In this document: positions 7,242 through 57,800 of the stretch, in pieces
Layout: each line of letters opens with the position of its first letter
Numbering within the stretch: the stretch's first letter is position 1
Made by a program: the position numbers and the translations under genes
Assembly (NCBI GenBank): GCA_016190625.1
Contig: JACPQF010000008.1
Span: 7,235-71,234, forward strand
Reading direction: 5' to 3'
DNA: 64,000 bases
DNA from: Chloroflexota bacterium
Lineage (GTDB): Bacteria; Chloroflexota; Dehalococcoidia; JACPQF01
Notes under the pieces: generated by a model
The model's database searches: none
Seen by the model: the letters and a program-made list of their open reading frames with translations, nothing else
Told to the model about the DNA's origin: nothing

Positions 7242-8525
7242 TTGACTACGCCTCATCTGGGCAGCTATAATCGACGCCGCTGGCTCTCGATGCAGCCGGA
7301 GGACGGGCAAATGGCAACAAGACCGAGACGCATTTCAATCTTACGACCAGTGGCGATCACCGTATTGGCGCTCGCCCTCGCCCTGATTCTCGAACGCCTC
7401 TCCTTCCCGTCGATCCCATTCTCCCTCTCGGCGGGGAACTCCGAGTTCAAGGCGGTCTACAGCGAGCTAAAAGGCTCTGAGAGCACGCTTTGGGCGGCAG
7501 ACCCGACCGAACCTCTGGGCCGTCGAAAAGCCATTCTGACCGTCAGCCACGCCTCCGGGTACGGCGTGCTCGCCAGCCTATCCCCTGACGGCGCCGGTCT
7601 AGCTTACGGGCTACTTCCAGAGGGACGGCGAGACGCTTTCTCCGACGGTCAGTTGTGGGTCGCTTCGGCCGACGGTCGTGGATCACGACTGATTGCCGGC
7701 AAGATGGACCTTCACTTCCCTCCCCTCTGGAGTCCCGATAGCAAGAGCCTTCTGTTCAAGACCATCGAGGTCGCGCCAGGCGGAAACCCGGACACTCGCC
7801 CTGTGTCCGACGGTGGGAAGCCCGACCAAAGGCCATACGATCTCAACTTCAGGAGCAGTCTCGTGGTTGTCTCGCCTGATGGCCCGGCAAGAGTGCGAGC
7901 CATCGTTTCATCGTCGGATCCGAATCTCTACCCCATCGGTTGGTCGACTGATGGCAAGAGCACGTATTACTACACGGTCGAGGCCGACGGCTCGCAGGCT
8001 CACCTCGTCGACGTCGCTACTGCCGAGACGAGAAGGCTCGGACTGCTGTCCGGCGGGCCAGTTTGGAGTGTAAAGCTTTCTCCCGACCGGCGCCGGCTTC
8101 TTTTCCTTGCGGTACAAGCAAGCGACTCGGCAACACGTGGCACCGTCTGGGTATTCGACCAAGATACGGGGCATTCCTTTCAGGTCGGGGCCACGCAACC
8201 GGGACCGCTTGGCGCCATCTGGCATCCTTCCGGCGACCAGGTCACCAGTAACACAAGCCAAGGACCTTCTCGGCCTGGCCAAACGCTTCTTAACACGAAC
8301 ATGGCGAGCGGCGCAACTCAGACTTTCGGCGAGAACGGCGAAGGAACAATTGCCGTTCCTCTTTCTTGGTCACCAGATTCCAACTTCCTCGCCGTCCGGC
8401 GACGGTCCACGGCAACGAATGACCCGCCGGATGTCCTCGCCGTTCTCGACACGAGGTCGGGCCAACTGAAAGAGATCAAGGGCGGATATGCAGAATTCGT
8501 GGGGTGGACGACTTCTTCAAGATGA
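7242..8525 (+). CDS. membrane-anchored or secreted protein with TolB/WD40-like beta-propeller repeats
   Basis: Hydrophobic N-terminal segment (ISILRPVAITVLALALALIL), then repeated WSPDG/WSTDG/WSPDS blades typical of TolB-like propellers; the start is uncertain. Confidence 0.5.
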   Translation: MTTPHLGSYNRRRWLSMQPEDGQMATRPRRISILRPVAITVLALALALILERLSFPSIPFSLSAGNSEFKAVYSELKGSESTLWAADPTEPLGRRKAILTVSHASGYGVLASLSPDGAGLAYGLLPEGRRDAFSDGQLWVASADGRGSRLIAGKMDLHFPPLWSPDSKSLLFKTIEVAPGGNPDTRPVSDGGKPDQRPYDLNFRSSLVVVSPDGPARVRAIVSSSDPNLYPIGWSTDGKSTYYYTVEADGSQAHLVDVATAETRRLGLLSGGPVWSVKLSPDRRRLLFLAVQASDSATRGTVWVFDQDTGHSFQVGATQPGPLGAIWHPSGDQVTSNTSQGPSRPGQTLLNTNMASGATQTFGENGEGTIAVPLSWSPDSNFLAVRRRSTATNDPPDVLAVLDTRSGQLKEIKGGYAEFVGWTTSSR

Positions 8526-9789
8526 AAAGTGGCGCCGGAAAGCAATTCGACTGGCCGTCGACCTCGTCTCGCTGGCCCTCCTGACCCTGCTCTTCCGGTC
8601 GGCACTGGCCCTGGCCATCGGTGGAGATTCGGGTTGCGCCAATACTGGCGTACAAGATGCTTACCAACCGCGGGTTATGGAGCTTTCCAACGCGCTCGCT
8701 TCTGCAGCGAGTGGCAACCTGGGCACCAACTACGAGCCCATCGGCAGTCTCTGGTCGGGCTATCCGAATCAGAGTCTGGTACCCGCTTCGATTCCCTGCA
8801 CCATACTGAAATCGATCGCTTACATCGAAAGCGGCTGGCGCCAAGCAAGTACAGCACCGCGAGGTTCGTCTGGTGAGCCTCTGGTTTCATACAGTTGTGG
8901 GTACGGCGTCATGCAGATAACCTCGCCCATGACGGCTCCCGGACCGGGCAGTGGATTGCTCGATCCTGCCAGGCAACAACGCGTTGCCCGTGAATACACG
9001 TTCAACGTTAGCTACGGCGCCAAGATGCTTGTCGACAAATGGAATTGGACACCAGTCATCGGCGGCAACAATCCCGCCATCCTCGAGAATTGGTATTATG
9101 CCGTCTGGGCCTACAACGGATGGACGTGGAAAAACAATCCGAATAACCCATCCTACGATCCATTCCGTCCGCAATACAATGGCAGCCCGGGACAGAGCTA
9201 TCTGCAATATCCTTATCAAGAGTTGGTCTGGGGCCGGGCGGCCAATCCACCGACCATCGACGGGATTGTCGCATGGACGCGGGCAGACATCACTCTACCA
9301 CCGAGCAACCAGATAACGAACCCACCTGGTCAAATCGCAGACCCACAGCTTACGCATACCGAGACCTGCTCGAGCACGCCACCGCCGACGCTCACCCCTA
9401 CACCAACTCGTACAGCCACGCCCACCTACACGCCCACGCCGACGGCTATGCCCCTGCCGCTGCTGCAGGCCTCCACCAATTACATCGGCTTCCTTGCCGA
9501 ACCCGGGCAGACCCCAGGGCCGCAGACTCTCACCCTAACCGGCAACCGATCCAGCATCGTTTGGTCTGTTCAATCGCCCCCTCCTTGGATTACCGCCGTT
9601 CCCACCGGTGGAGAAAGCCTGCCTGCCAGCGTGAGGATCTCGGCCGGCCCTTGGAGCACCCCAGATTCCCGTTCGGGGTCGATCCGCATCCAGAATGCGC
9701 ACAACCCGAGCCAGAACAACCTGCTGGTGAGCATCTACCAATATCTAGGCTCCCTCAGCAAGCTGCGCTTTCCGCTGGTGTACAGGTAG
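8488..9789 (+). CDS. secreted lytic-transglycosylase (SLT/lysozyme-like) domain protein with a Pro/Thr linker and a C-terminal beta-sandwich domain
   Basis: Signal/TM region (LAVDLVSLALLTLLFRSALALAIG). SLT-like motifs: ILKSIAYIESGW (catalytic E-S), GYGVMQIT, NVSYGAKML, AYNGW. PT-rich linker TPTPTRTATPTYTPTPTA. Ends with the tail LSKLRFPLVYR; the start overlaps the previous ORF and is uncertain. Confidence 0.55.
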   Translation: MQNSWGGRLLQDEKWRRKAIRLAVDLVSLALLTLLFRSALALAIGGDSGCANTGVQDAYQPRVMELSNALASAASGNLGTNYEPIGSLWSGYPNQSLVPASIPCTILKSIAYIESGWRQASTAPRGSSGEPLVSYSCGYGVMQITSPMTAPGPGSGLLDPARQQRVAREYTFNVSYGAKMLVDKWNWTPVIGGNNPAILENWYYAVWAYNGWTWKNNPNNPSYDPFRPQYNGSPGQSYLQYPYQELVWGRAANPPTIDGIVAWTRADITLPPSNQITNPPGQIADPQLTHTETCSSTPPPTLTPTPTRTATPTYTPTPTAMPLPLLQASTNYIGFLAEPGQTPGPQTLTLTGNRSSIVWSVQSPPPWITAVPTGGESLPASVRISAGPWSTPDSRSGSIRIQNAHNPSQNNLLVSIYQYLGSLSKLRFPLVYR

Positions 9790-10052: not shown

Positions 10053-10268
10053 ATGCATAATGAGTTTACCGCCATCCTTGAGCGCGATGGCGAGTGGTTC
10101 GTCGCCTATTGTCCCGAGATTCCTGGGGCAAACGGACAAGGTCACACGAAGAAAGAGGCTCTGGACAACTTGGCCGATGCAATCGAGCTCATATTGGAAG
10201 ACCGGCGCGAAGATGGTCTGAGGGGTGCGCCGGAAGGTGCTATTCGAGAAATCGTGACCATTGGATGA
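10053..10268 (+). CDS. hicB: HicB-family antitoxin (UPF0150, RNase H-like fold)
   Basis: 71 aa MHNEFTAILERDGEWFVAYCPEIPGANGQGHTKKEALDNLADAIELILEDRRE is a typical short HicB; its stop TGA overlaps the hicA ATG (ATGA). Confidence 0.85.
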   Translation: MHNEFTAILERDGEWFVAYCPEIPGANGQGHTKKEALDNLADAIELILEDRREDGLRGAPEGAIREIVTIG

Positions 10269-10459
10269 AACGCCATGAGCTCCTACAGCATTTGCGAACG
10301 AATGGCTGCTATCTGAAACGCGAAGGCCGTTCGCACTCGCTCTGGACCAATCCGCAAACAGGGCAAGTCGAGGCGATTCCACGCCACGTAGAGATCGCCG
10401 ATAAGTTGGCCGTGAAGATCTGTCGAAGGCTGTCGGTCCCCAACGTCAAGAAAACGTAA
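10265..10459 (+). CDS. hicA: HicA-family mRNA interferase toxin
   Basis: 64 aa MKRHELLQHLRTNGCYLKREGRSHSLWTNPQTGQVEAIPRHVEIADKLAVKICRRLSV (YcfA/HicA dsRBD-like fold). This frame is embedded in six-frame ORF 10094..10459; the start was chosen at the ATG overlapping the hicB stop. Confidence 0.85.
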   Translation: MKRHELLQHLRTNGCYLKREGRSHSLWTNPQTGQVEAIPRHVEIADKLAVKICRRLSVPNVKKT

Positions 10460-10642: not shown

Positions 10643-11449
10643 ATGATTGTCGAAGTGGCCGTGCTTCCTCAGATGCTTCGTGGCGTCGAGCGGAAGACCT
10701 GCATCATCGTCGACGTGCTGCGGGCTAGCACCACGCTGGTGACGATGCTGGAGCGCGGGGCGGAGACGATTCGCCTGGCGGCTGGCGTCGACGAGGCGCG
10801 GGATCTCTTCCGAAGCCGACCCGGCGCCCTGCTCTGCGGCGAACACGGCGGCCTTGCCCCCGCCGGGTTTCACCACGGGAACTCCCCCGTCGAGTACTGC
10901 TCCCTCGATCTGAGGGGAAAAGAGGTCGTCTTCGCCACAAGCAATGGGACAAAGGCGCTGACCGCCGTGGCTGGCTCGCCTGGCGTTCTCATCGGCTGCT
11001 TTCGCAACGCTTCGGCGGTGATCGACACTGCTCTGGCGGCCGGGCGGGATATCGCCCTAGTATGCTCGGGTCGGGCCAGCGGCACAGCCTACGGCCTCGA
11101 CGACGTCTTCTGCGCTGGCTACTTGGTAGGCAGGATAATGGCGCACGTCGAGATCAACGATGCATCGCCGTCCGAAGCGGACATCGCCCGGCTGGTTTCC
11201 AGCGGCGAGTTCGAGACAGAGGGCTGGTACCTCGACGAGTCAGCTATGGCGGCCCACCGCCTGTGCACGACCTATCGAGACGACGTTTTGGCGGCGTTCA
11301 GAGACAGCGGCAACGGGAAACATCTGATTCAACTGGGATTGGAAAGCGATTTGCATTTCTGCGGAGAAGTGGATACCAGCCGGGTGGTGCCAATGCTGGC
11401 TGGCTCAGAAGGCGGGCTTCGGGTCGTCAAGAGGGCTGAAGTTGCCTGA
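10643..11449 (+). CDS. comB: 2-phosphosulfolactate phosphatase (ComB) family protein
   Basis: 268 aa; CIIVDVLRASTTLVTMLERGA...FATSNGTKAL...DDVFCAGYLV matches the ComB family fold and motifs. Confidence 0.8.
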   Translation: MIVEVAVLPQMLRGVERKTCIIVDVLRASTTLVTMLERGAETIRLAAGVDEARDLFRSRPGALLCGEHGGLAPAGFHHGNSPVEYCSLDLRGKEVVFATSNGTKALTAVAGSPGVLIGCFRNASAVIDTALAAGRDIALVCSGRASGTAYGLDDVFCAGYLVGRIMAHVEINDASPSEADIARLVSSGEFETEGWYLDESAMAAHRLCTTYRDDVLAAFRDSGNGKHLIQLGLESDLHFCGEVDTSRVVPMLAGSEGGLRVVKRAEVA

Positions 11450-11863
11450 TTCGAAGGGGTCGAGAGCCTTCGCATCAGCCATTTTCAGCCCCCTTCACCC
11501 GCAGCTTGAGATAGCTACCGAGTAGTGCGGGTTATGATGTCGTAGGAGCGGTGTCCTTCCGCAGAAGGATGACCGCCCCCTTGGCCGCCACGGAGGGACG
11601 GCCACCACGGCATCAACAAGACCCAAATTACTCGGTACGAGCTAGTCAGCGTTCTTCAAAAAGGACGCTAGCACGCCTCCCCGGCAATCTCCATGTGCCT
11701 GTTAGGCTACCAAGAAGAACATTACCACTATGTGGCCACACCGGGCTGGCATGCGCCGGCAGGGCCGTCTTGCCGCGGGGTTTTGGCACGCGTCCTGCAT
11801 CGGATAGAGGACTCTTTCCGGAAGGCCAGCCAGTAGGGCTACAGTCTCATTAAGGATAATGCG

Positions 11864-13105
11864 ATGTTGTACTTATCTCAAATCATCGGGCGATCGATAC
11901 GCGATCGCCAGAACGAGGCCATCGCCACCATCAAAGACCTCATCGTCCGCCTTGGCGAGGAGGCTTATCCTCCCGTGGTCGGACTGATCGCGAGAACCGG
12001 GGCCAGGGATTTCTTTGTCCCCTGGGTGCAGGTTGCCGAGCTGACGGAGCGGGGCGCCAAGTTGTCCACGTTCAAAGTCAACCTTGAGCCTTTTGCCCGT
12101 CGCGACGGAGAGGTTCTCCTCACGAGGGACGTGTTGGACAAACAGCTTGTGGATGTGAACGGCCGGCGGGTAGTTAGAGTCAACGACCTTCAGTTGGCGC
12201 CTGTCGACAGCGAGGTAAGAGTAGTGGGAGTAGACGTAAGTCCCCAGGCCATCCTCCGGAGGCTCGGACCAGCCTCGTTGTTTGGTAAGCTGCAAAGCCG
12301 CGAGATAATCGATTGGGCTAACGTCGAGTACCTTGTCACCCACGCGCCAGCCGTGCGCCTGAAGATGTCTCACGAGCGCCTGTCCAAGCTCCACCCGGTC
12401 GATATCGCCAGGATCATCGATTCCCTGTCCTATCATCAGGGCGCCGAGATCGTCGGATCGCTGGACACAGCCACTGCCGCCGACACCATCGAGGAGATGA
12501 GTCCCGAACGACAGGTCGATATCGTCGAGGGCATGGAAGAGGAGAAGGCAGCCGACATCCTGGAGGAGATGGCGCCCGACGAGGCCGCAGACATCCTCGC
12601 CGAGCTTTCCGAAGAGAAAGCCGAGGACCTGCTCGAGCTCATGGACGAGGAAGAGGCCGATGACGTCAGAGAGCTCATGGAATATGAGGAGGATACCGCC
12701 GGTGGAATCATGACGACCGACTTCGCGGCAATCCCCTCTTCGTCCACCGTGGGCGAGGCCATCGAGCACATTCGGCGGCTGGAGGAGAAGCCTGATTTCC
12801 TCTTCTACGTCTATGTGGTCGAGAGCGAAACAGATGGCCGCCTGGTTGGGGCCGTCTCATTGAGGGACCTCCTATTGGCGGAGCCAACGGAGCTAATTGT
12901 CGACGTCATGCAACGCGAACTGAGGGTCGGCAACGCCGACGACTCCGCTCGCGATGTCGCTCGCAAGATCGCCGAATACAACCTGCAGGCTCTTCCCGTG
13001 GTGGACGACAAAGAAGAGATCCTCGGCGTCGTCACCTTGGACGATGCGATGGAGATCATTTTGCCAGAGCCGTGGCGACGGCGTCTCCCCAAGGTTTTCC
13101 GATGA
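11864..13105 (+). CDS. soluble PRC-barrel + MgtE-N + tandem CBS domain protein (MgtE-like cytoplasmic Mg2+-sensing module lacking the transmembrane domain)
   Basis: N-terminal PRC-barrel-like region (DVNGRRVVRVNDLQLAPVDSEVRVVGVDV). Acidic helical MgtE-N region (IARIIDSLSYHQGAEIVGSLDTATAADTIEEMSPERQVDIVEGMEEEKAADILEEMAPDEAADILAEL). CBS pair (AGGIMTTDFAAIPSSSTVGEAIEHIRR...AVSLRDLL...LPVVDDKEEILGVVTLDDAM). No hydrophobic segments. Confidence 0.8.
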   Translation: MLYLSQIIGRSIRDRQNEAIATIKDLIVRLGEEAYPPVVGLIARTGARDFFVPWVQVAELTERGAKLSTFKVNLEPFARRDGEVLLTRDVLDKQLVDVNGRRVVRVNDLQLAPVDSEVRVVGVDVSPQAILRRLGPASLFGKLQSREIIDWANVEYLVTHAPAVRLKMSHERLSKLHPVDIARIIDSLSYHQGAEIVGSLDTATAADTIEEMSPERQVDIVEGMEEEKAADILEEMAPDEAADILAELSEEKAEDLLELMDEEEADDVRELMEYEEDTAGGIMTTDFAAIPSSSTVGEAIEHIRRLEEKPDFLFYVYVVESETDGRLVGAVSLRDLLLAEPTELIVDVMQRELRVGNADDSARDVARKIAEYNLQALPVVDDKEEILGVVTLDDAMEIILPEPWRRRLPKVFR

Positions 13106-13125
13106 TCTCTAATCAGGAGAGATAG

Positions 13126-14463
13126 TTGCCGGACGATAGCAAGACCTCTGCGGGCGGGCTGCCCGAAGGAGAGAAAGGGACGAGCGCTGGCCAGCCCGTC
13201 CCGGAGGCACCGGCGCGGCGGCTCGCGGCCACACGACGCGATGTGCTGACGTATCTCGCCATTCTGGGGCCGGGCATTATCGCCGCCGTGGCAGGCAACG
13301 ACGCCGGTGGCATCGCGGTGTACTCTCACGCCGGCGCGGCCTTCGGCTATCAGTTGCTCTGGGCGCTCGCCATCATCACCATCAGCTTGATCGTCGTCCA
13401 GTTGATGAGCGCCCGCATGGGCGCCGTCACCGGCAAGGGATTGGCGGACCTCGTTCGGGAGGAGTTCGGCATCCGTTGGACGGCGCTGGCCATGCTGGCT
13501 CTGCTAGTCGCCAACGGCGGCACCACCATTGCCGAGTTCGCCGGCATCGCCGCTGCCGCCGAGTTGCTGGGTATCAGCCGCTACATCGCCGTTCCCTTGA
13601 TGGGCCTCTTCATCTGGCTAGTGGTTGTCCGCGCTTCCTATCGAACGGCAGAACGGATCTTCTTGACCCTGTCGGCTGTCTTCGCCGTCTACTTCATCGC
13701 CCCCTTTCTTGCCCATCCGGACTGGAACGTAGTCATTAGGTCCACTGCAGTGCCCTCATTCAACGTCAGTGCTGGCTTTCTGACAGCCATCATCACGCTG
13801 GTCGGCACTACCGTAACGCCCTACATGCAGCTCTTCGTCCAGTCGGCGGTCGTGGACAAAGGAGTAACCATCCGTGATTATCGCTTCGCCCGCCTCGACG
13901 TGATCTTCGGCTCGGTTTTCGCTATCTTCGTAGCCTTCTTCATCATCGTAACCACCGGAACAATTCTCCATCCGGAGGGAATTGCCGTGGAAACCGCCGA
14001 GGATGCCGCCAAAGCGCTGGCGCCTCTGGCGGGCGAATACGCTACCATCCTATTCGCCGTCGGTCTGTTTGGCGCCTCGATGCTGGCGGCCAGCATCCTG
14101 CCGCTTTCGACCGCCTACGCTACCTGTGAGGCTTTCGGCTGGGAGAGAGGAGTGTCGAAGGGGTTCGGCGAGGCCCCGGTCTTCAACGGGCTGTACACGG
14201 GGCTGATAGCTCTCTCCGTGCTGGTGGTCCTGCTCCCCGGACTACCACTCATCGGCGCCATCATCCTGAGCCAGTTCATCGACGGCCTCCTGCTTCCCGT
14301 CGTTCTCGTCTTCATGCTCAAGCTGAGCAACAACCGGGAAGTGATGGGCGACCACGTGAACGGCCCCTGGTTCAACCTCATCGCCTGGTCGACGGCAGTT
14401 GTCCTCATCGCCCTGTCAGCCGTCCTGCTGGCAACCTCGCTGGCCGGGATGCTGCCCATCTAG
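13126..14463 (+). CDS. Nramp/SLC11-family transporter with non-canonical metal-site residues
   Basis: 445 aa, about 11 TM segments; TM1 GPGIIAAVAGNDAGGIAVYSHAGAAFGYQLLW and TM6 VGTTVTPYMQLFVQSAVV. TTG start with an AGGAGAG SD 21 nt after the stop of the upstream MgtE-N/CBS gene. Confidence 0.85.
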   Translation: MPDDSKTSAGGLPEGEKGTSAGQPVPEAPARRLAATRRDVLTYLAILGPGIIAAVAGNDAGGIAVYSHAGAAFGYQLLWALAIITISLIVVQLMSARMGAVTGKGLADLVREEFGIRWTALAMLALLVANGGTTIAEFAGIAAAAELLGISRYIAVPLMGLFIWLVVVRASYRTAERIFLTLSAVFAVYFIAPFLAHPDWNVVIRSTAVPSFNVSAGFLTAIITLVGTTVTPYMQLFVQSAVVDKGVTIRDYRFARLDVIFGSVFAIFVAFFIIVTTGTILHPEGIAVETAEDAAKALAPLAGEYATILFAVGLFGASMLAASILPLSTAYATCEAFGWERGVSKGFGEAPVFNGLYTGLIALSVLVVLLPGLPLIGAIILSQFIDGLLLPVVLVFMLKLSNNREVMGDHVNGPWFNLIAWSTAVVLIALSAVLLATSLAGMLPI

Positions 14464-15917: not shown

Positions 15918-17678
15918 CTACCTTAGCGTCAGCGGGAAATGGAGTTTGCTCAACCCGCCGCCATCCGGTCCGGCGATGGTAGAGGTCCAGGCCGAGGAGC
16001 TGCTGGGGAAGGGCCGGACGTTCCCGGCGTTATCCGTCGCCCTCACACGAAAATAGTAGGTGCGCCCGGCTGTTCCGTCAAGAAACAGGCTGGATGTACT
16101 AGTGGTCCCGGTTAGCCACGAACGCCACGCGCCCGACGAACCCTCCTTGAACTGGAGGTCAGAGGAGGCAATGCCAGAGGGACTATCTGACCCCTGCCAG
16201 GCCACCCTGAACCAGGTGCGGGCCTGCGTCGGCGACAGAGAGACCATAGAGGAAGTCGGGGCGATGGCGTCCACCGTCGTAACCGCATCGCCATTCCCGC
16301 CGGCATAGGTCCCGACGTCGCCGGCGTTATCGGTCGCTCTCGACTGGAAGTAGTAGGTTTGGCCCTGGCCACCAGCAAATGAGGCCGACATGGCCGTGGT
16401 CTGCGTGAGCCAGTCCTGCCAGTTCCCCCCGGCGAGCTTATATTGGACGTCGTAGCTCTGGATGCCGGTCCCGCTCCTGTCGGTCCCGGACCAGCTAACC
16501 GTGAAGGATATCGTCCTCTGATAGGTGGCGAGGCTGGCCACGGCGGCGGTCGGCGGCAGGGATTTCGGCATGCTCTTTAGCGCCGAGTAGGCCAGACGAA
16601 ACTTGATGGCGTTGGTGCCGGGGCTGCAGGGGTTGTCCCGGTAGGTTAGCGAGTAGTAGCGCATGGGATTGCACATGTTGGTATTGCCAGGGCAGCCAGC
16701 CTGATAGTAGTCGGCGCCGAAGTCGAGGTTGAAGACGAACATGGCCCCCATCCAGGACCAGTTGGCAAGCGCATAGTTAAAGGCTCTGACCAGGTAGTCC
16801 GCCTGGGTAGGTTCGCCTACCTTCTGCCAGTTCCGGTCGGGCCAGTCGCAGCCCGTATCGAGCAGCCAGCCAAACTCGGTGGCCCAGATCGGCTTCCCGC
16901 CATCGCCGTTGGCTGCCATCACCGCGTATTGTTGCTCGGCCCGACGGAAAGCCAATCCGGAGGCCGCGCCCGGATCGTACTCCGGGGGATAAGCAAAGCC
17001 ATAGGGATGAGAGCCGAGGACGTCGAAGTAGCCGCGGGCGCCGGCGTTGTACATCTGTTGAATGAAATCCAGATCGTCCAGGGCAAAGCCGCCATGCTCG
17101 CCATTGGTCGCCAGCCCGGCAGTGACCACGAGAGCGTTGGGATCGCCGGCCTTGATTCGCCCGTAAACCGCCTGAAGCATCTGGGCGTAACGCCCGGGGT
17201 CGGGCGCGCCGCCGCCCCATTCCGAGGCGAGGTTTGGCTCGTTCCAGATCTCGTAGGCGGTGACCTTGCCTCGCAAATGGCTCGCCAGGGCGTAGAGAAA
17301 GTCGCCGAAATCGTTCAGGTTGGACGGCGGCGCCGTGCCTCCCACGCCATTTTCCCAGGCAGGCGCACCATCCACGCGAATAAGTAGTTGGAGGTTCCTG
17401 CCTTGCGCCGCATTGGCGATGTTGTCGGCATCGTTAGCACGACCACCGTTCCAGGCATAGTCGCCTTTGGAAAACTCGCTGCGGGCCCAGGACAGGCCTA
17501 CCTTCATGTAGCCAAAGCCCAGATCGGACACATAGGCGGAGTTGGCGAGGTCGGCGACGCTTACGCCGTAGCCGAGGGGGCCGGCTCTAGCAGTGGCGCT
17601 GGCAGCGCGGCGGGCAGACTGAGGCGGCAAGATGGCCATGGCCACTATCAGAACCGGTAAAACCCAGCGCACCAGCAA
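15918..17678 (-). CDS. secreted glycoside hydrolase (clan GH-A, cellulase/GH5-like) with two C-terminal Fn3-like beta-sandwich domains
   Basis: Signal peptide MLVRWVLPVLIVAMAILPPQSARRAAS. Catalytic-acid motif VTAYEIWNEPNL. Two repeated ~90-aa domains ending YYFQSRATDNAGDVG and YYFRVRATDNAGNV. Ends with the tail LSKLHFPLTLR. Confidence 0.75.
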   Translation of the reverse strand: MLVRWVLPVLIVAMAILPPQSARRAASATARAGPLGYGVSVADLANSAYVSDLGFGYMKVGLSWARSEFSKGDYAWNGGRANDADNIANAAQGRNLQLLIRVDGAPAWENGVGGTAPPSNLNDFGDFLYALASHLRGKVTAYEIWNEPNLASEWGGGAPDPGRYAQMLQAVYGRIKAGDPNALVVTAGLATNGEHGGFALDDLDFIQQMYNAGARGYFDVLGSHPYGFAYPPEYDPGAASGLAFRRAEQQYAVMAANGDGGKPIWATEFGWLLDTGCDWPDRNWQKVGEPTQADYLVRAFNYALANWSWMGAMFVFNLDFGADYYQAGCPGNTNMCNPMRYYSLTYRDNPCSPGTNAIKFRLAYSALKSMPKSLPPTAAVASLATYQRTISFTVSWSGTDRSGTGIQSYDVQYKLAGGNWQDWLTQTTAMSASFAGGQGQTYYFQSRATDNAGDVGTYAGGNGDAVTTVDAIAPTSSMVSLSPTQARTWFRVAWQGSDSPSGIASSDLQFKEGSSGAWRSWLTGTTSTSSLFLDGTAGRTYYFRVRATDNAGNVRPFPSSSSAWTSTIAGPDGGGLSKLHFPLTLR

Positions 17679-23642: not shown

Positions 23643-23680
23643 GTAGGGGCGAATCCTTCGGCTGAAGGATTCGCCCCTAC
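23643..23680. repeat. REP-like palindromic element, family A (perfect copy)
   Basis: GTAGGGGCGAATCCTTCGGCTGAAGGATTCGCCCCTAC, a 17-bp perfect stem, 39 nt downstream of the glucokinase stop. Confidence 0.65.
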
Positions 23681-54850: not shown

Positions 54851-57800
54851 GTGCTTGCTCTACATGCGCAGTTCCTGAACAATAGGAGCTTCTTTATCTG
54901 GGGCGAGGACTCTGCTAGATGGCAGGCAGCCACCAGCAAACGAGCGCGCTCTTCAGCCAGAACCACCGCCAAATCTCATCCATTCGCTTGCTCTGCCGAC
55001 CAGCTACGCGAGGTCTTGGCGGCGAATAGCGATCTAGACTCGAAGGGACTCTCGGCGGGCAACGCCGTGCTGCGCTTGCCAACTGCCAACCGGCTTCCGG
55101 CCAAATCCCCTTACCTGCTCACCGAGGAGTACGGTCCTGCGGACGATAAGGCAAGTCTGCAGCCGTGGTCGGTCGAAGGGATCCGGTGCAGACACGTAGA
55201 CATCACGAAGCTGCTCGAGGCCTTCGATGGCTTCTCGTCTCACAGCGTTATCTTGGGCGAGTCCTTCCACTATTGGCTCAATGCCGCCCGGCTGGTTCAG
55301 GAATGGGTGGCCCGCGGCTGTGTGCTGCCCGTCCTTCTCGAAAGGATGGAAGCAGACGGGAAGTACCAGGCCCGCTGGAGGTTGCATGCCGTAGAGGACA
55401 AGGACTTCGAGCGACGCCGCCTATTGGCCGAAGCGCTGCCCCCTGTTGGCCGGGCCGAGGCGATAGGCGACAACGCCGAGCCGGATCCGCAGTCGATCCT
55501 CGACGCCTTCTTGGATACGACCGCCGACGGCTTGTGCCGCCTCCTTCTGGCCAGCCGCAAGCCTGCACAACGAGCGAGGGCAGGCGCCAGTCCGTCCGCG
55601 GAAACAGCTTTCGTCGAAGCTCTCACCGGCGAGAACCCGACCGTAGTGGCGGCAAAGAGCGACGTCCGGCGCCTGGCCGGCATTTTGGCTGACTGGAGCA
55701 AGGGTGCGAGCGAGATCGCGGCCGGAGCGTTGCGAACCACTTTCAAGCTCGAAGCGCCGGATGAAGCAGTCCCAACGGCAACCGGCGGTACGCCAGACGG
55801 CTTCTGGCAACTGCATTTCTTGCTGCAGGCCGTCGGCGACAAGAGCTTGCAGATTCCTGCCGAAGATGTCTGGAAGCCGAGAGCGGAAACCGCCCGTTTT
55901 CTCAAACAGAGCTTTGAGCATCCCCAGGAACGGCTGCTGGGCGATCTGGGCCGCGCCACGCGCCTTTACGCCCCCATCGAAGAGGGGCTCAAATGCGCCA
56001 GACCCTCGGGCTTGCGTCTAACAGCCGAGCAGGCCTACGATTTCCTCCGGCACGGGGCGCCTCTGCTGGAACAGGCCGGATTTGGCGTGCTCGTACCAAA
56101 ATGGTGGTCCTTCCACAGAAGGACCCGCCTCGGCGTCCGCCTGAAGGTGAAAAGCAAGGCAGACGGCAGTAAGACCGGTAGCGGGCTTATGGGCATGAAC
56201 GCCCTGGTCGAATACTCGTGGGAGATAGCCATCGGCGAGGAAACGATAACGCCCGAGGAATTCGCCAAGCTGGCTGCCCTCAAAGTGCCGCTGGTCAAGG
56301 TACGGGGGCAGTGGGTAGAGCTCAAACCCGACGAGATCGAGGCGGCAATCGCCTTCTTTGCCAAGAGACAGGCGATGGGCGCCATCACCGTAAGCGACGC
56401 CCTGCATCTGAACAGTGGCATCGAGAACATGGCGGGAGTTCCGGTGACCAACGTCGACTTAGAAGGCTGGTTGTCGAGTCTGCTCGGCGACGGCGGCGAA
56501 GGTAGTCATATGGAGGCGGTCGATCCTCCCGAATCGTTCCACGGCGAGCTAAGGCCCTACCAGAAGCGGGGGCTATCGTGGCTCGCGTTTCTCGGGCAGC
56601 GAGGCTTGGGCGCCTGCCTGGCCGACGATATGGGGCTGGGCAAGACCATCCAATTGATCGCCCTCTTGCTGCGAGAACGGGAGGACGCGGCCGCCAGACC
56701 CCAACCCACGCTGCTGATCTGTCCCATGTCGGTGATGGGTAACTGGCAGCGCGAGGTTCGCAGGTTCGCCCCGAGCCTCGAAGCCCATATTCATCACGGC
56801 GGAGAACGACTGGCCGACGACGAATTCGTCCGCGAAGCGCAGACGAAGGATTTGGTCATCTCCTCGTATGCCATAGCGACCAGGGATGTCGATACCCTCA
56901 AGCGAATAGATTGGCAGCGGGTGGCGCTCGACGAAGCCCAGAACATCAAGAACAGCAACACGAAACAGGCGCAAGCTGCCCGTCAGTTGGCGGCCAGCGA
57001 GAGGGTAGCCTTGACGGGTACGCCGGTTGAGAACCGCCTCTCCGAGCTTTGGTCGATAATGGAGTTTCTCAATCCGGGCTATCTCGGAGGACCTATGGAG
57101 TTTCGCAAGCGGTTCGTCATTCCCATCGAGCGCTATCACGACGATTCCCGGGCTACAGCTCTCAAGCGCCTGGTGGGGCCATTCGTTCTGCGAAGGCTCA
57201 AGACCGACAGATCCATCATCGAGGACCTTCCTGACAAGATCGAAAACAAAGTCTACTGCAACCTAACCCGCGAACAGGCGTCTCTCTATCAGGCTGTCGT
57301 CGACGAGATGATCGACAAGATCGAACAGTCGGAGGGCATCACCCGCAAGGGACTGGTTCTGGCCACGATGCTGCGGCTCAAGCAGGTCTGCAACCACCCT
57401 GCTCACTTCCTGCAGGACCACAGCAGCCTGGTAGGACGCTCGGGTAAGCTGGAGAGATTGACCGAGATGCTCGAGGAGCTAGTCGAAACGGGCGACAAGT
57501 CTCTCGTGTTCACCCAGTTTGCCGAAATGGGCCAGATGCTGAAGGGCTACTTGCAGGAGCGCTTCGGGCAAGAAGTACTTTTCCTTCATGGCGGCACAAG
57601 CCGCAAGGCGCGAGACGCTATGGTCGCCACTTTCCAGTGCACCGGCGCCTCGCCCCTGATATTTATCCTATCCCTGAAGGCGGGCGGCGTTGGCCTGAAC
57701 CTCACGGGGGCGAGCCACGTCTTCCATTTCGATCGCTGGTGGAACCCGGCGGTGGAGAATCAGGCCACGGATAGGGCGTTTCGCATTGGCCAAACGAAGA

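Follow-up and report, generated by a model that had tools for sequence, protein, structure and literature searches.

Two adjacent genes were found on the forward strand of a 64,000-nt stretch of Chloroflexota DNA, called the window here. Both reading frames lie exactly where the first-pass annotation had placed them. The upstream gene encodes a soluble partner protein, and the downstream gene encodes a predicted transporter of the SLC11 family; their features are collected in Table 1. The locus is an ordinary new example of the two-gene NrmT/NRMT-type operon, a kind first described in 2014.

Table 1. Features of the operon and its leader, with positions in the window.
Feature	Position	Strand	Basis
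Intergenic leader before the operon, with the presumed promoter and 5' UTR	11450..11863	+	414 nt; no riboswitch found
Long imperfect hairpin in the leader, cap TCCTTC-CGCA-GAAGGA (11554-11569)	11505..11650	+	MFE -72.9 kcal/mol
Shine-Dalgarno-like AAGGAT before the partner gene	11852..11857	+	read from sequence
Partner gene, 413-aa soluble PRC-barrel, MgtE_N and CBS-pair protein	11864..13105	+	Pfam, PDB, AF2, Foldseek
N-terminal PRC-barrel domain, residues 2-56	11867..12031	+	PF05239, E 1.5e-9; modelled beta-barrel, pLDDT ~90
Second small beta domain, residues 83-134, weakly PRC-like	12110..12265	+	model strands; conservation
MgtE_N helical domain, residues 176-277, with D207, D239 and D243	12389..12694	+	Pfam, TtMgtE alignment, family counts
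CBS pair, residues ~282-399, with D394, E397 and N373	12707..13060	+	Pfam, TtMgtE alignment, family counts
Conserved basic C-terminal tail LPEPWRRRLPKVFR in place of the MgtE acidic plug helix	13064..13102	+	64 homologues
Shine-Dalgarno AGGAGAG before the transporter gene	13115..13121	+	read from sequence
Predicted NRMT-type SLC11 transporter gene	13126..14463	+	PF01566; EleNRMT 7QIA match
Helix-1 binding-site motif D59-A-G-G62 (canonical DPGN)	13300..13311	+	ungapped alignment to EleNRMT D55/G58
Helix-6 binding-site motif T228-T-V-T231-P-Y233 (canonical A-x-x-M-P-H)	13807..13824	+	EleNRMT alignment

The partner is a pore-less form of the MgtE cytoplasmic sensor module (N domain and CBS pair), extended at its N-terminus by a PRC-barrel region. 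Besides the PRC domain, the Pfam matches are MgtE_N (PF03448) and two CBS domains (PF00571); the MgtE pore domain PF01769 is absent from the protein, and both the five-helix pore and the plug helix are missing. The initial description of a soluble PRC, MgtE-N and CBS-pair protein without a pore is borne out. The match to TIGR00400 is confined to profile positions 23-252 of 450, the PDB search matched the cytosolic domain of TtMgtE (2YVY, E 5.5e-36), and an AF2 model (pLDDT 80) had MgtE cytosolic domains as its top Foldseek matches. Residues 83-134 are among the best conserved parts (RDVLDKQLVDVxGxRVVRVND in 120 homologues; invariant columns in alignment A3). A second PRC barrel was considered for this region; the PRC match is sub-threshold (E 0.076), and it is called a weakly PRC-like beta domain here. 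Homologues of the PRC-bearing form, which is about 413 aa long, number in the thousands. The sequence AGGATAA before the gene is conserved in two related loci (L001 and L002). The protein is identical (100%) to the NCBI MAG protein P0001, and the public name of the latter, 'magnesium transporter', is misleading because the protein ends 13 residues past the CBS pair and has no pore domain.

The partner and the cytoplasmic domain of TtMgtE (Thermus thermophilus; 2YVY/2YVX/2ZY9) share the N domain and the CBS pair at about 33% identity. With the sensor sites of TtMgtE defined as in PMC5882242, the alignment equates D207, D239 and D243 of the partner with E59, D91 and D95, and D394, E397 and N373 with D247, D250 and D226. 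The five acidic residues are conserved among 120 partner homologues. The predicted sensor positions Mg4 (D91/D247), Mg6 (D95) and Mg7 (E59) therefore stay acidic in this sequence mapping; whereas Mg5 is half kept, with E397 acidic at D250 and N373 invariably Asn at D226 in the same homologues. The plug-helix positions Mg2 and Mg3 are absent. The Mg2+ affinity and cooperativity of the partner may differ from those of MgtE, because half of Mg5 is Asn and Mg2 and Mg3 are lacking.

Unlike TtMgtE, the partner also carries an extra N-terminal PRC-barrel region of about 170 residues and a basic C-terminal tail with the motif LPxxWRxRLPxxF. Among 64 homologues, the tail residues P401, W404 and R407 never vary and R405, P409 and F412 hardly do; the motif occurs in 46 of 55 distant loci, one of them archaeal. 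When the partner was modelled in isolation, the tail had low pLDDT. The full-length PRC-MgtE channels P0313 (599 aa) and P0326 (593 aa) have the same PRC, MgtE_N and CBS order and are 40-42% identical to partner residues 1-402. They run on into an acidic plug (EEATED) and the pore domain PF01769; whereas the partner stops after its 13-residue basic tail. The tail motif is missing in P0313, which retains EEATED.

The transporter has 445 aa when counted from the TTG at 13126; the NCBI call (P0121) has 434 aa and starts 11 codons later. The TTG start is reasonable, judged from the sequence, because AGGAG lies 6-7 nt upstream and the N-terminal MP[DEN][DE]S is also found in P0122 and P0123. The assignment to Nramp/SLC11 made at first reading holds (PF01566, E 2.6e-93, 356 of 357 profile positions covered). 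The best PDB match is EleNRMT of Eggerthella lenta (7QIA, E 2e-124; also 7QIC/7QJI/7QJJ), with residues 39-441 aligned to 35-437 without gaps at about 60% identity over 403 residues; the next best PDB match has an E-value of 4e-32.

Alignment of helices 1 and 6 gave the same motifs that had been read by eye, D59-A60-G61-G62 and T228-T229-V230-T231-P232-Y233. The NRMT signature was reported to be DxxG-TxxA/T, against DxxN on helix 1 and A/CxxM on helix 6 in canonical Nramps (PMC8806188). It is present in the transporter in the TxxT form, which is also found in about 75 of 80 related genome loci. Transporter and EleNRMT share the helix-1 segment AGNDAGGI, Thr at the first helix-6 ligand position, and the conserved Glu and Gln (E137 and Q383; E133 and Q379 in EleNRMT). 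They differ at the canonical Met position, which is Ala in EleNRMT and Thr here. Both proton-pathway histidines of helix 6b are absent; their positions are taken by Y233 and V238, which correspond to W229 and N234 of EleNRMT, and the loss of these histidines was described for EleNRMT as well (PMC8806188). The substitutions named in the first-pass annotation are all present, but its list was incomplete: the change of the first helix-6 ligand from Ala to Thr and the loss of the second proton-pathway histidine (V238) had been missed. In EleNRMT the mutation T224A left Mg2+ transport no longer detectable, and the Thr was the most important residue for Mg2+; that protein carries Mg2+ and Mn2+, not Ca2+, without proton coupling (PMC8806188). 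On this comparison the transporter is assigned to the NRMT clade of SLC11 and not to the canonical Mn/Fe Nramps, as had been suspected from the motifs, and its binding site is predicted to be enlarged and all-oxygen (Asp59, Gly62, Thr228, Thr231), as in EleNRMT.

The spacer from the partner stop codon (13103-13105) to the TTG is 20 nt, one less than first counted. A survey of genomes for pore-less MgtE partners beside NRMT genes, which the first-pass annotation had proposed, placed the partner directly upstream of and co-oriented with the NRMT gene in 69 of the 72 testable loci (68 and the overlapping L014). The gap has a median of 9 nt, with 11 overlaps, across 55 loci. The pair is kept, tightly spaced and often overlapping, in Chloroflexota, Actinomycetota, Acidobacteriota, Armatimonadota and one archaeon; in two acidobacterial genomes the reverse check gave the same result, and the locus is syntenic with L001. 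Because adjacency is conserved in 69 of 72 loci, the two genes are almost certainly co-transcribed, as was originally proposed, and functionally linked. On the EleNRMT side, the Eggerthella relative Slackia (L021) has no partner gene in its 7.2-kb locus, which spans 3 kb on each side of the NRMT gene; whereas the transporter described here has one.

The pairing is not new. Most NrmT genes, according to Shin et al. 2014, adjoin a gene encoding the MgtE cytoplasmic domain; the authors proposed cytoplasmic feedback regulation by the MgtE-like partner, or a chaperone activity (PMC4072509). Two systems can be compared with the locus by their descriptions there. In A. capsulatum ACP2976-ACP2977 and C. 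acetobutylicum Ca_c0685, as here, the MgtE cytoplasmic domain is encoded right upstream of an NRMT-clade gene. An M-box is lacking in the A. capsulatum pair too; Ca_c0685 differs in being M-box controlled and in having its partner split into two genes. The PRC-barrel region and the C-terminal tail find no mention in Shin et al. 2014. New here are these specifics: the basic tail, which sensor sites are kept and which are lost, and a probable descent from PRC-MgtE channels. Among the papers searched for later work on the NRMT partner, none characterises it, and none joins NRMT, MgtE and CBS. The NRMTs form the newest class; their partner, nearly universal and noticed in 2014, has had no successful demonstration of its role since.

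The locus is a typical Chloroflexota example and leaves the picture of NRMT partner function unchanged. The survey does narrow what deserves testing, namely the surviving MgtE sensor sites in the partner, the conserved tail at the place of the MgtE plug helix, and the PRC-barrel region common to the partner and a subfamily of full-length MgtE channels.

As a whole, the operon is on balance best explained as encoding an importer of Mg2+ (and Mn2+) that is restrained by a Mg2+-sensing partner; the odds for this explanation are slightly better than even. The membrane potential would drive the import of Mg2+ (and Mn2+) by the transporter. The partner would bind cytoplasmic Mg2+ at the kept inter-domain acidic sites (the Mg4, Mg6 and Mg7 equivalents) and change shape like the MgtE cytosolic domain. 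When Mg2+ is sufficient, it would restrain the transporter, probably by docking on its cytoplasmic face, and the basic tail replacing the plug helix is a candidate contact. Since most lineages, this one included, have no riboswitch, feedback of whatever kind must work on the proteins themselves; here such feedback would therefore be the main control of the operon. What we infer is the regulation in trans by the partner and the preference of the transporter between Mg2+ and Mn2+.

A more specific version is put forward tentatively, and it may well prove wrong. A detachable MgtE-type sensor, derived from a PRC-bearing MgtE by loss of plug and pore, might gate in trans an unrelated carrier of the LeuT fold, the SLC11 protein, and dock by its tail motif and perhaps the PRC region. 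If this is true, one regulatory module would be common to a channel and a carrier. The term 'split Mg2+ transporter', used at first, is misleading, for NRMTs transport by themselves: EleNRMT is active alone in liposomes (PMC8806188), the C. acetobutylicum NrmT complemented without its partner, and complementation was the same when the A. capsulatum partner was co-expressed (PMC4072509).

The leading alternative, which we regard as unlikely but worth serious attention, keeps the same two proteins and makes Mn2+ or another transition metal the physiological substrate, with the partner responding to Mn2+, ATP or another ligand. The A. capsulatum pair, the sole tested riboswitch-less example, acted mainly as an importer of Mn2+: with it, a mutant defective in Mn2+ uptake recovered fully, and a Mg2+ mutant recovered only when Mg2+ was millimolar (PMC4072509). 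The nearest partner homologues outside Chloroflexota are acidobacterial. EleNRMT carries Mn2+ too, and the CBS domains of MgtE also bind ATP (PDB 5X9H is among the Foldseek matches). No M-box (RF00380) was found in the window or in 38 of the 40 related loci scanned, including all scanned Chloroflexota and Acidobacteriota relatives. However, the transporter lacks the soft Met ligand, which favours transition metals, it has the Thr critical for Mg2+ in EleNRMT, and the acidic positions kept in the partner are those binding Mg2+ in MgtE. Moreover, one of the two loci with an M-box (L024) has the same TxxT variant and lies under this Mg2+ riboswitch. The original proposal of Mg2+ uptake stands as to the NRMT type of the transporter; Mg2+ specificity is not assured, given the Mn2+ transport by EleNRMT, the mainly Mn2+ transport by the A. 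capsulatum pair and the lack of an M-box.

The M-box was detected by the same method (134 bits) directly upstream of the partner gene in two actinobacterial relatives (L005 and L024). These two loci, together with the same association in Shin et al. 2014, connect the pair with magnesium. In that study an M-box upstream of NrmT was taken as an indicator of Mg2+ specificity, though not an obligatory one (PMC4072509).

It is rather improbable, more so than the Mn2+ alternative, that the partner has no gating role and is co-expressed as a metal buffer or chaperone for the imported ion, or as a Mg2+ or nucleotide sensor whose PRC-barrel region addresses other targets. Co-expression of the A. capsulatum partner, the only such test, changed nothing, and a chaperone activity was also suggested by the same authors (PMC4072509). 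The PRC and second beta domains equal the sensor domains in conservation, and nothing in classical MgtE gating corresponds to them. Among the best 150 matches to a concatenated query, searched in 1.84 billion representatives, there was no full-length natural fusion of partner and NRMT; therefore direct contact has no Rosetta-stone support. Two junction-spanning matches (P0334 and P0387) were rejected as fusions, since they look like frameshifted or over-extended gene calls. Against a non-gating partner stands the tight and phylogenetically broad coupling with overlapping stop and start codons, which is typical of subunits acting together. The same PRC N-terminus also occurs on full-length MgtE, where the module is physically joined to a transport domain.

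The leader is a real gap of 414 nt, in agreement with the roughly 410 bp of non-coding sequence first estimated; its sole ORF (11551-11853, 100 aa, Arg/Pro-rich) looks non-coding by composition. That it carries a new metal-sensing RNA controlling the operon is very improbable. The length of the gap and the fold z-score of -4.6 for 11500-11870 might suggest such an element; however, the leader values of -4.6 and -5.3 are due to one hairpin, and the 300 nt adjoining the partner start codon are no more stably folded than shuffled sequence (z -1.05). Rfam at gathering score gave no family in the whole window, and the sensitive mode found nothing credible in 11300-12000. Past its first ~70 nt and the ribosome-binding site, the leader is not conserved against L001 and L002, where the partner protein is 85% identical, and the leader of syntenic L001 has a z-score of +0.72. 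From these comparisons the long leader is judged not to be a conserved regulatory element. The hairpin belongs to a repeat family that is specific to this genome: its apex motif TCCTTCNNNNGAAGGA occurs exactly at 8 sites in the window, where 0.01 would be expected, and at none in 84 related loci, L001 included.

An ordinary MntH-type Mn2+/Fe2+ Nramp with misread motifs, to which the public name 'Nramp family divalent metal transporter' and sub-threshold or generic NCBIfam MntH/Nramp matches might point, is refuted by the MntH model score of 147 bits against a cut-off of 430, by E-values of 1e-26 to 4e-32 for canonical Nramps against 2e-124 for EleNRMT, and by the absence of the DPGN and MPH residues when the protein is aligned, without gaps, to a solved NRMT. 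Public annotation already lists both genes, under imprecise names.

Judged from its sequence, the locus encodes a transporter of the Nramp-related Mg2+ transporter (NRMT) clade, with a binding site like that of the Eggerthella lenta member EleNRMT, together with a pore-less MgtE sensor module, the partner. Both ORFs of the first-pass annotation are present, the partner (413 aa) at 11864-13105 and the transporter (445 aa) at 13126-14463. The assignment of the latter to Nramp/SLC11 was borne out by an end-to-end Pfam Nramp match (E 2.6e-93); its score against the MntH model (147 bits) was far under the cut-off of 430. Among all PDB sequences, the best match is EleNRMT (7QIA; E 2e-124, 403 residues ungapped, about 60% identity), an Nramp-related Mg2+ transporter characterised in structure and function (PMC8806188), and the canonical Nramps all gave E 4e-32 or worse. 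The NRMT clade is defined by the signature DxxG-TxxA/T, replacing DxxN-A/CxxM (Ramanadane et al. 2022, PMC8806188); the transporter carries its 'T' variant (D59-A-G-G62 and T228-T-V-T231). Alignment with EleNRMT showed that the TM1 and TM6 motifs (DAGG, TTVTPY) had been read correctly, and the helix-6 changes listed with them stand; a further change, Ala to Thr at the first position of the helix-6 motif, was overlooked. The EleNRMT mutation T224A at this position abolished detectable Mg2+ transport (PMC8806188). The equivalents of EleNRMT E133 and Q379 are kept as E137 and Q383, while Y233 and V238 correspond to EleNRMT W229 and N234, at the positions of two histidines in proton-coupled Nramps. 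The commonest motif pairs in 80 related loci were DAGG/TTITPW (56) and DAGG/TTITPY (16), and TTVTPY reads as a trivial variant of this common type. The window stems from a public Chloroflexota MAG, in which the entry P0121 ('Nramp family divalent metal transporter') is 100% identical and starts at 13159, 11 codons downstream of a TTG at 13126. A good Shine-Dalgarno sequence precedes this TTG, and MP[DEN][DE]S at the N-terminus is also kept in P0122 and P0123, so the public start is probably too short.

The partner was also described correctly as a PRC-barrel, MgtE_N and CBS-pair protein: Pfam found these domains, including two CBS domains, and no MgtE pore domain. The MgtE equivalog TIGR00400 matched at positions 23-252 of 450 only, which is the cytoplasmic part, with a score under the cut-off. 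The identical public entry (P0001, 100%) is named 'magnesium transporter'. An AF2 model (mean pLDDT 80) gave the boundaries in the table, and MgtE cytosolic domains rank top in its Foldseek search. The second beta domain contains one of the best conserved stretches of the family, RDVLDKQLVDVxGxRVVRVND. A partner of about 413 aa with the PRC region is the norm, seen in all of the best 120 among more than 7,600 matches.

The Mg2+ sites defined by Maruyama et al. 2018 (PMC5882242) were mapped by aligning 120 homologues with Thermus thermophilus MgtE (TtMgtE). The C-terminus, LPEPWRRRLPKVFR, lies at the expected start of the MgtE plug; across 64 homologues, P401, W404 and R407 do not vary at all, and R405, P409 and F412 hardly vary. 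This tail motif is kept in 46/55 distant loci, including the archaeal one.

Features of the partner and sites of the repeated hairpin apex (family counts, n=120)
Feature	Position	Source or family residues
PRC-barrel	partner 2-56	Pfam
MgtE_N	partner 176-277	Pfam
Beta-barrel, confident	partner 1-70	AF2 model
Second small beta domain	partner 83-134	AF2 model; weakly PRC-like by sequence
MgtE_N helical repeat	partner 178-273	AF2 model
CBS pair	partner 288-399	AF2 model
Tail, low confidence	partner 403-413	AF2 model
Mg7, TtMgtE E59	D207	E 108, D 11
Mg4, TtMgtE D91	D239	D 114
Mg6, TtMgtE D95	D243	D 120
Mg4, TtMgtE D247	D394	D 120
Mg5, TtMgtE D250	E397	E 110, D 8
Mg5, TtMgtE D226	N373	N 120
Mg2 and Mg3, TtMgtE E258, D259 (plug helix)	absent	absent
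Exact apex	window 11554, 18946, 23654, 29263, 46426, 56108, 58600, 60213	
Apex with 1-2 mismatches	window 4709, 31009, 36640	

A concatenated partner and transporter query against 1.84 billion representative proteins revealed no genuine fusion among the best 150 matches. The search also returned proteins of about 600 aa with a partner-like PRC, MgtE_N and CBS region (P0313, P0326, P0331, P0341, P0344, P0349, P0358 and P0368), 40-42% identical to partner residues 1-402. The two checked, P0313 and P0326, also have the MgtE pore domain, and P0313 retains the acidic plug EEATED; the PRC region thus marks a subfamily of full-length MgtE channels. By this comparison, the partner looks like the cytoplasmic part of a PRC-bearing MgtE channel, with a short basic tail replacing the plug and pore.

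The pairing of an NrmT gene with an MgtE-like cytoplasmic protein gene was already published by Shin et al. 2014, who reported it for most NrmT genes (PMC4072509), and the locus, which is real and correctly identified, is a typical further example of that system. The co-occurrence survey proposed in the first-pass annotation found the pairing to be general, with the partner adjoining the transporter in 69/72 testable loci. A genome scan with the transporter as query gave 80 loci, chiefly from Chloroflexota, and also from Actinomycetota, Armatimonadota, Methylomirabilota and one Methanobacteriaceae archaeon; in 72 the sequence extends 1.3 kb or more upstream. The partner is directly upstream on the same strand in 68, and overlaps the transporter gene in another (L014); the exceptions are L021 (Slackia, an Eggerthella relative), L073 and L074. 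The median spacer is 9 nt, with 11 overlapping pairs, in the 55 loci where both genes are complete. The two-gene conservation is tight and phylogenetically broad. In the reverse check, two acidobacterial genomes again had an Nramp gene behind pore-less PRC-MgtE_N-CBS genes. There the gene behind the pair, on the same strand, encodes an MscS-family channel that carries a cyclic-nucleotide-binding domain (L083:6970-8430, L084:6981-8411), unlike the convergent PAS-GGDEF diguanylate cyclase downstream in the window and in the related locus L001. L001 keeps the entire order of ComB (2-phosphosulfolactate phosphatase-like), partner, NRMT and GGDEF genes, and its partner is 85% identical.

The MgtE cytosolic domain is reported to close when Mg2+ binds its inter-domain acidic sites. 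The partner may likewise use its retained Mg4/Mg6/Mg7-type sites to sense Mg2+ in the cytoplasm, and then restrain the transporter through direct contact, with the conserved tail as a candidate docking element. EleNRMT is active alone; it transports both Mg2+ and Mn2+, and this transport is not coupled to protons (PMC8806188). Such a brake is attractive because an uncoupled, membrane-potential-driven Mg2+ carrier would need one; the sole published co-expression experiment was negative. In the one riboswitch-less pair tested by Shin et al. 2014, Acidobacterium capsulatum ACP2976/ACP2977, the transporter fully rescued a Mn2+-uptake mutant but needed millimolar Mg2+ to rescue a Mg2+ mutant, and co-expression of the partner changed nothing (PMC4072509). 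In riboswitch-less lineages such as this one, the main substrate may be either Mg2+ or Mn2+. Those authors speculated on cytoplasmic feedback regulation or chaperone activity (PMC4072509), and our literature search found no later paper characterising the partner. For the regulation in trans proposed earlier, the gene link holds, and the mechanism restates the 2014 speculation. The family-level details (sensor sites, tail and PRC-MgtE ancestry) are modest increments, chiefly useful for designing experiments on partner function.

The locus adds two minor features of its own: it has no riboswitch, and its leader contains a repeated hairpin. No Rfam family was found in the gap 11450-11863, and the M-box was not found in gathering or sensitive mode. 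The detection works, since M-boxes (RF00380, 134 bits each) were found at L005:789-959 and L024:1456-1632, immediately before the partner gene of PRC-MgtE_N-CBS and NRMT operons in actinobacterial relatives (one Anaerosomatales and one Actinobacteria MAG); L024 has the TxxT variant, as in the window. A further 38 related loci yielded none. Compared with L001 and L002, only a hairpin at the ComB 3' end and the RBS are conserved. This hairpin (11425-11499; long, near-perfect, -36 kcal/mol, without a T-run) spans the stop codon of the ComB gene (10643-11449), and is probably a terminator or mRNA-stabilising stem. The unusually stable fold of the leader (z -4.6) is due to a single long hairpin spanning 11505-11650. 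A z of -1.05 was obtained for the 300 nt adjoining the partner start codon (window controls, mean -0.03), and of +0.72 for the L001 leader. The hairpin is a copy of a lineage-specific repeated element and was rejected as a regulator specific to the operon.

Its apex reads TCCTTC-CGCA-GAAGGA, and that of the family TCCTTC-NNNN-GAAGGA. The window has 8 exact TCCTTCNNNNGAAGGA sites (0.01 expected); allowing up to 2 mismatches gives 11. Every site tops a different longer stem of site-specific sequence, e.g. GTAGGGGCGAA...TTCGCCCCTAC at 23654. Most copies lie between large ORFs; those at 56108 and 58600 are within them. None of the 84 related loci, the syntenic L001 among them, contains the motif, and the family has the look of a lineage-specific element, either REP-like or terminator-like.

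An overlapping pair, a HicB-like antitoxin (10053-10268, +) and a HicA toxin (10262-10459, +), lies immediately before the ComB-like gene; the Pfam matches are weak (E 7e-6 for HicA, which narrowly misses the cut-off; E 1.7e-3 for HicB-like). Two secreted-looking proteins flank the operon, one with BACON and weak SLT domains (8488-9789, +) and one GH5-like with fn3 (15918-17678, -). Their C-termini, ...GSLSKLRFPLVYR and ...GGLSKLHFPLTLR respectively, are nearly alike, and among window ORFs of at least 150 aa solely these two end in FP[LIVM]xx[RK]; the shared peptide may be a sorting or anchoring tag.
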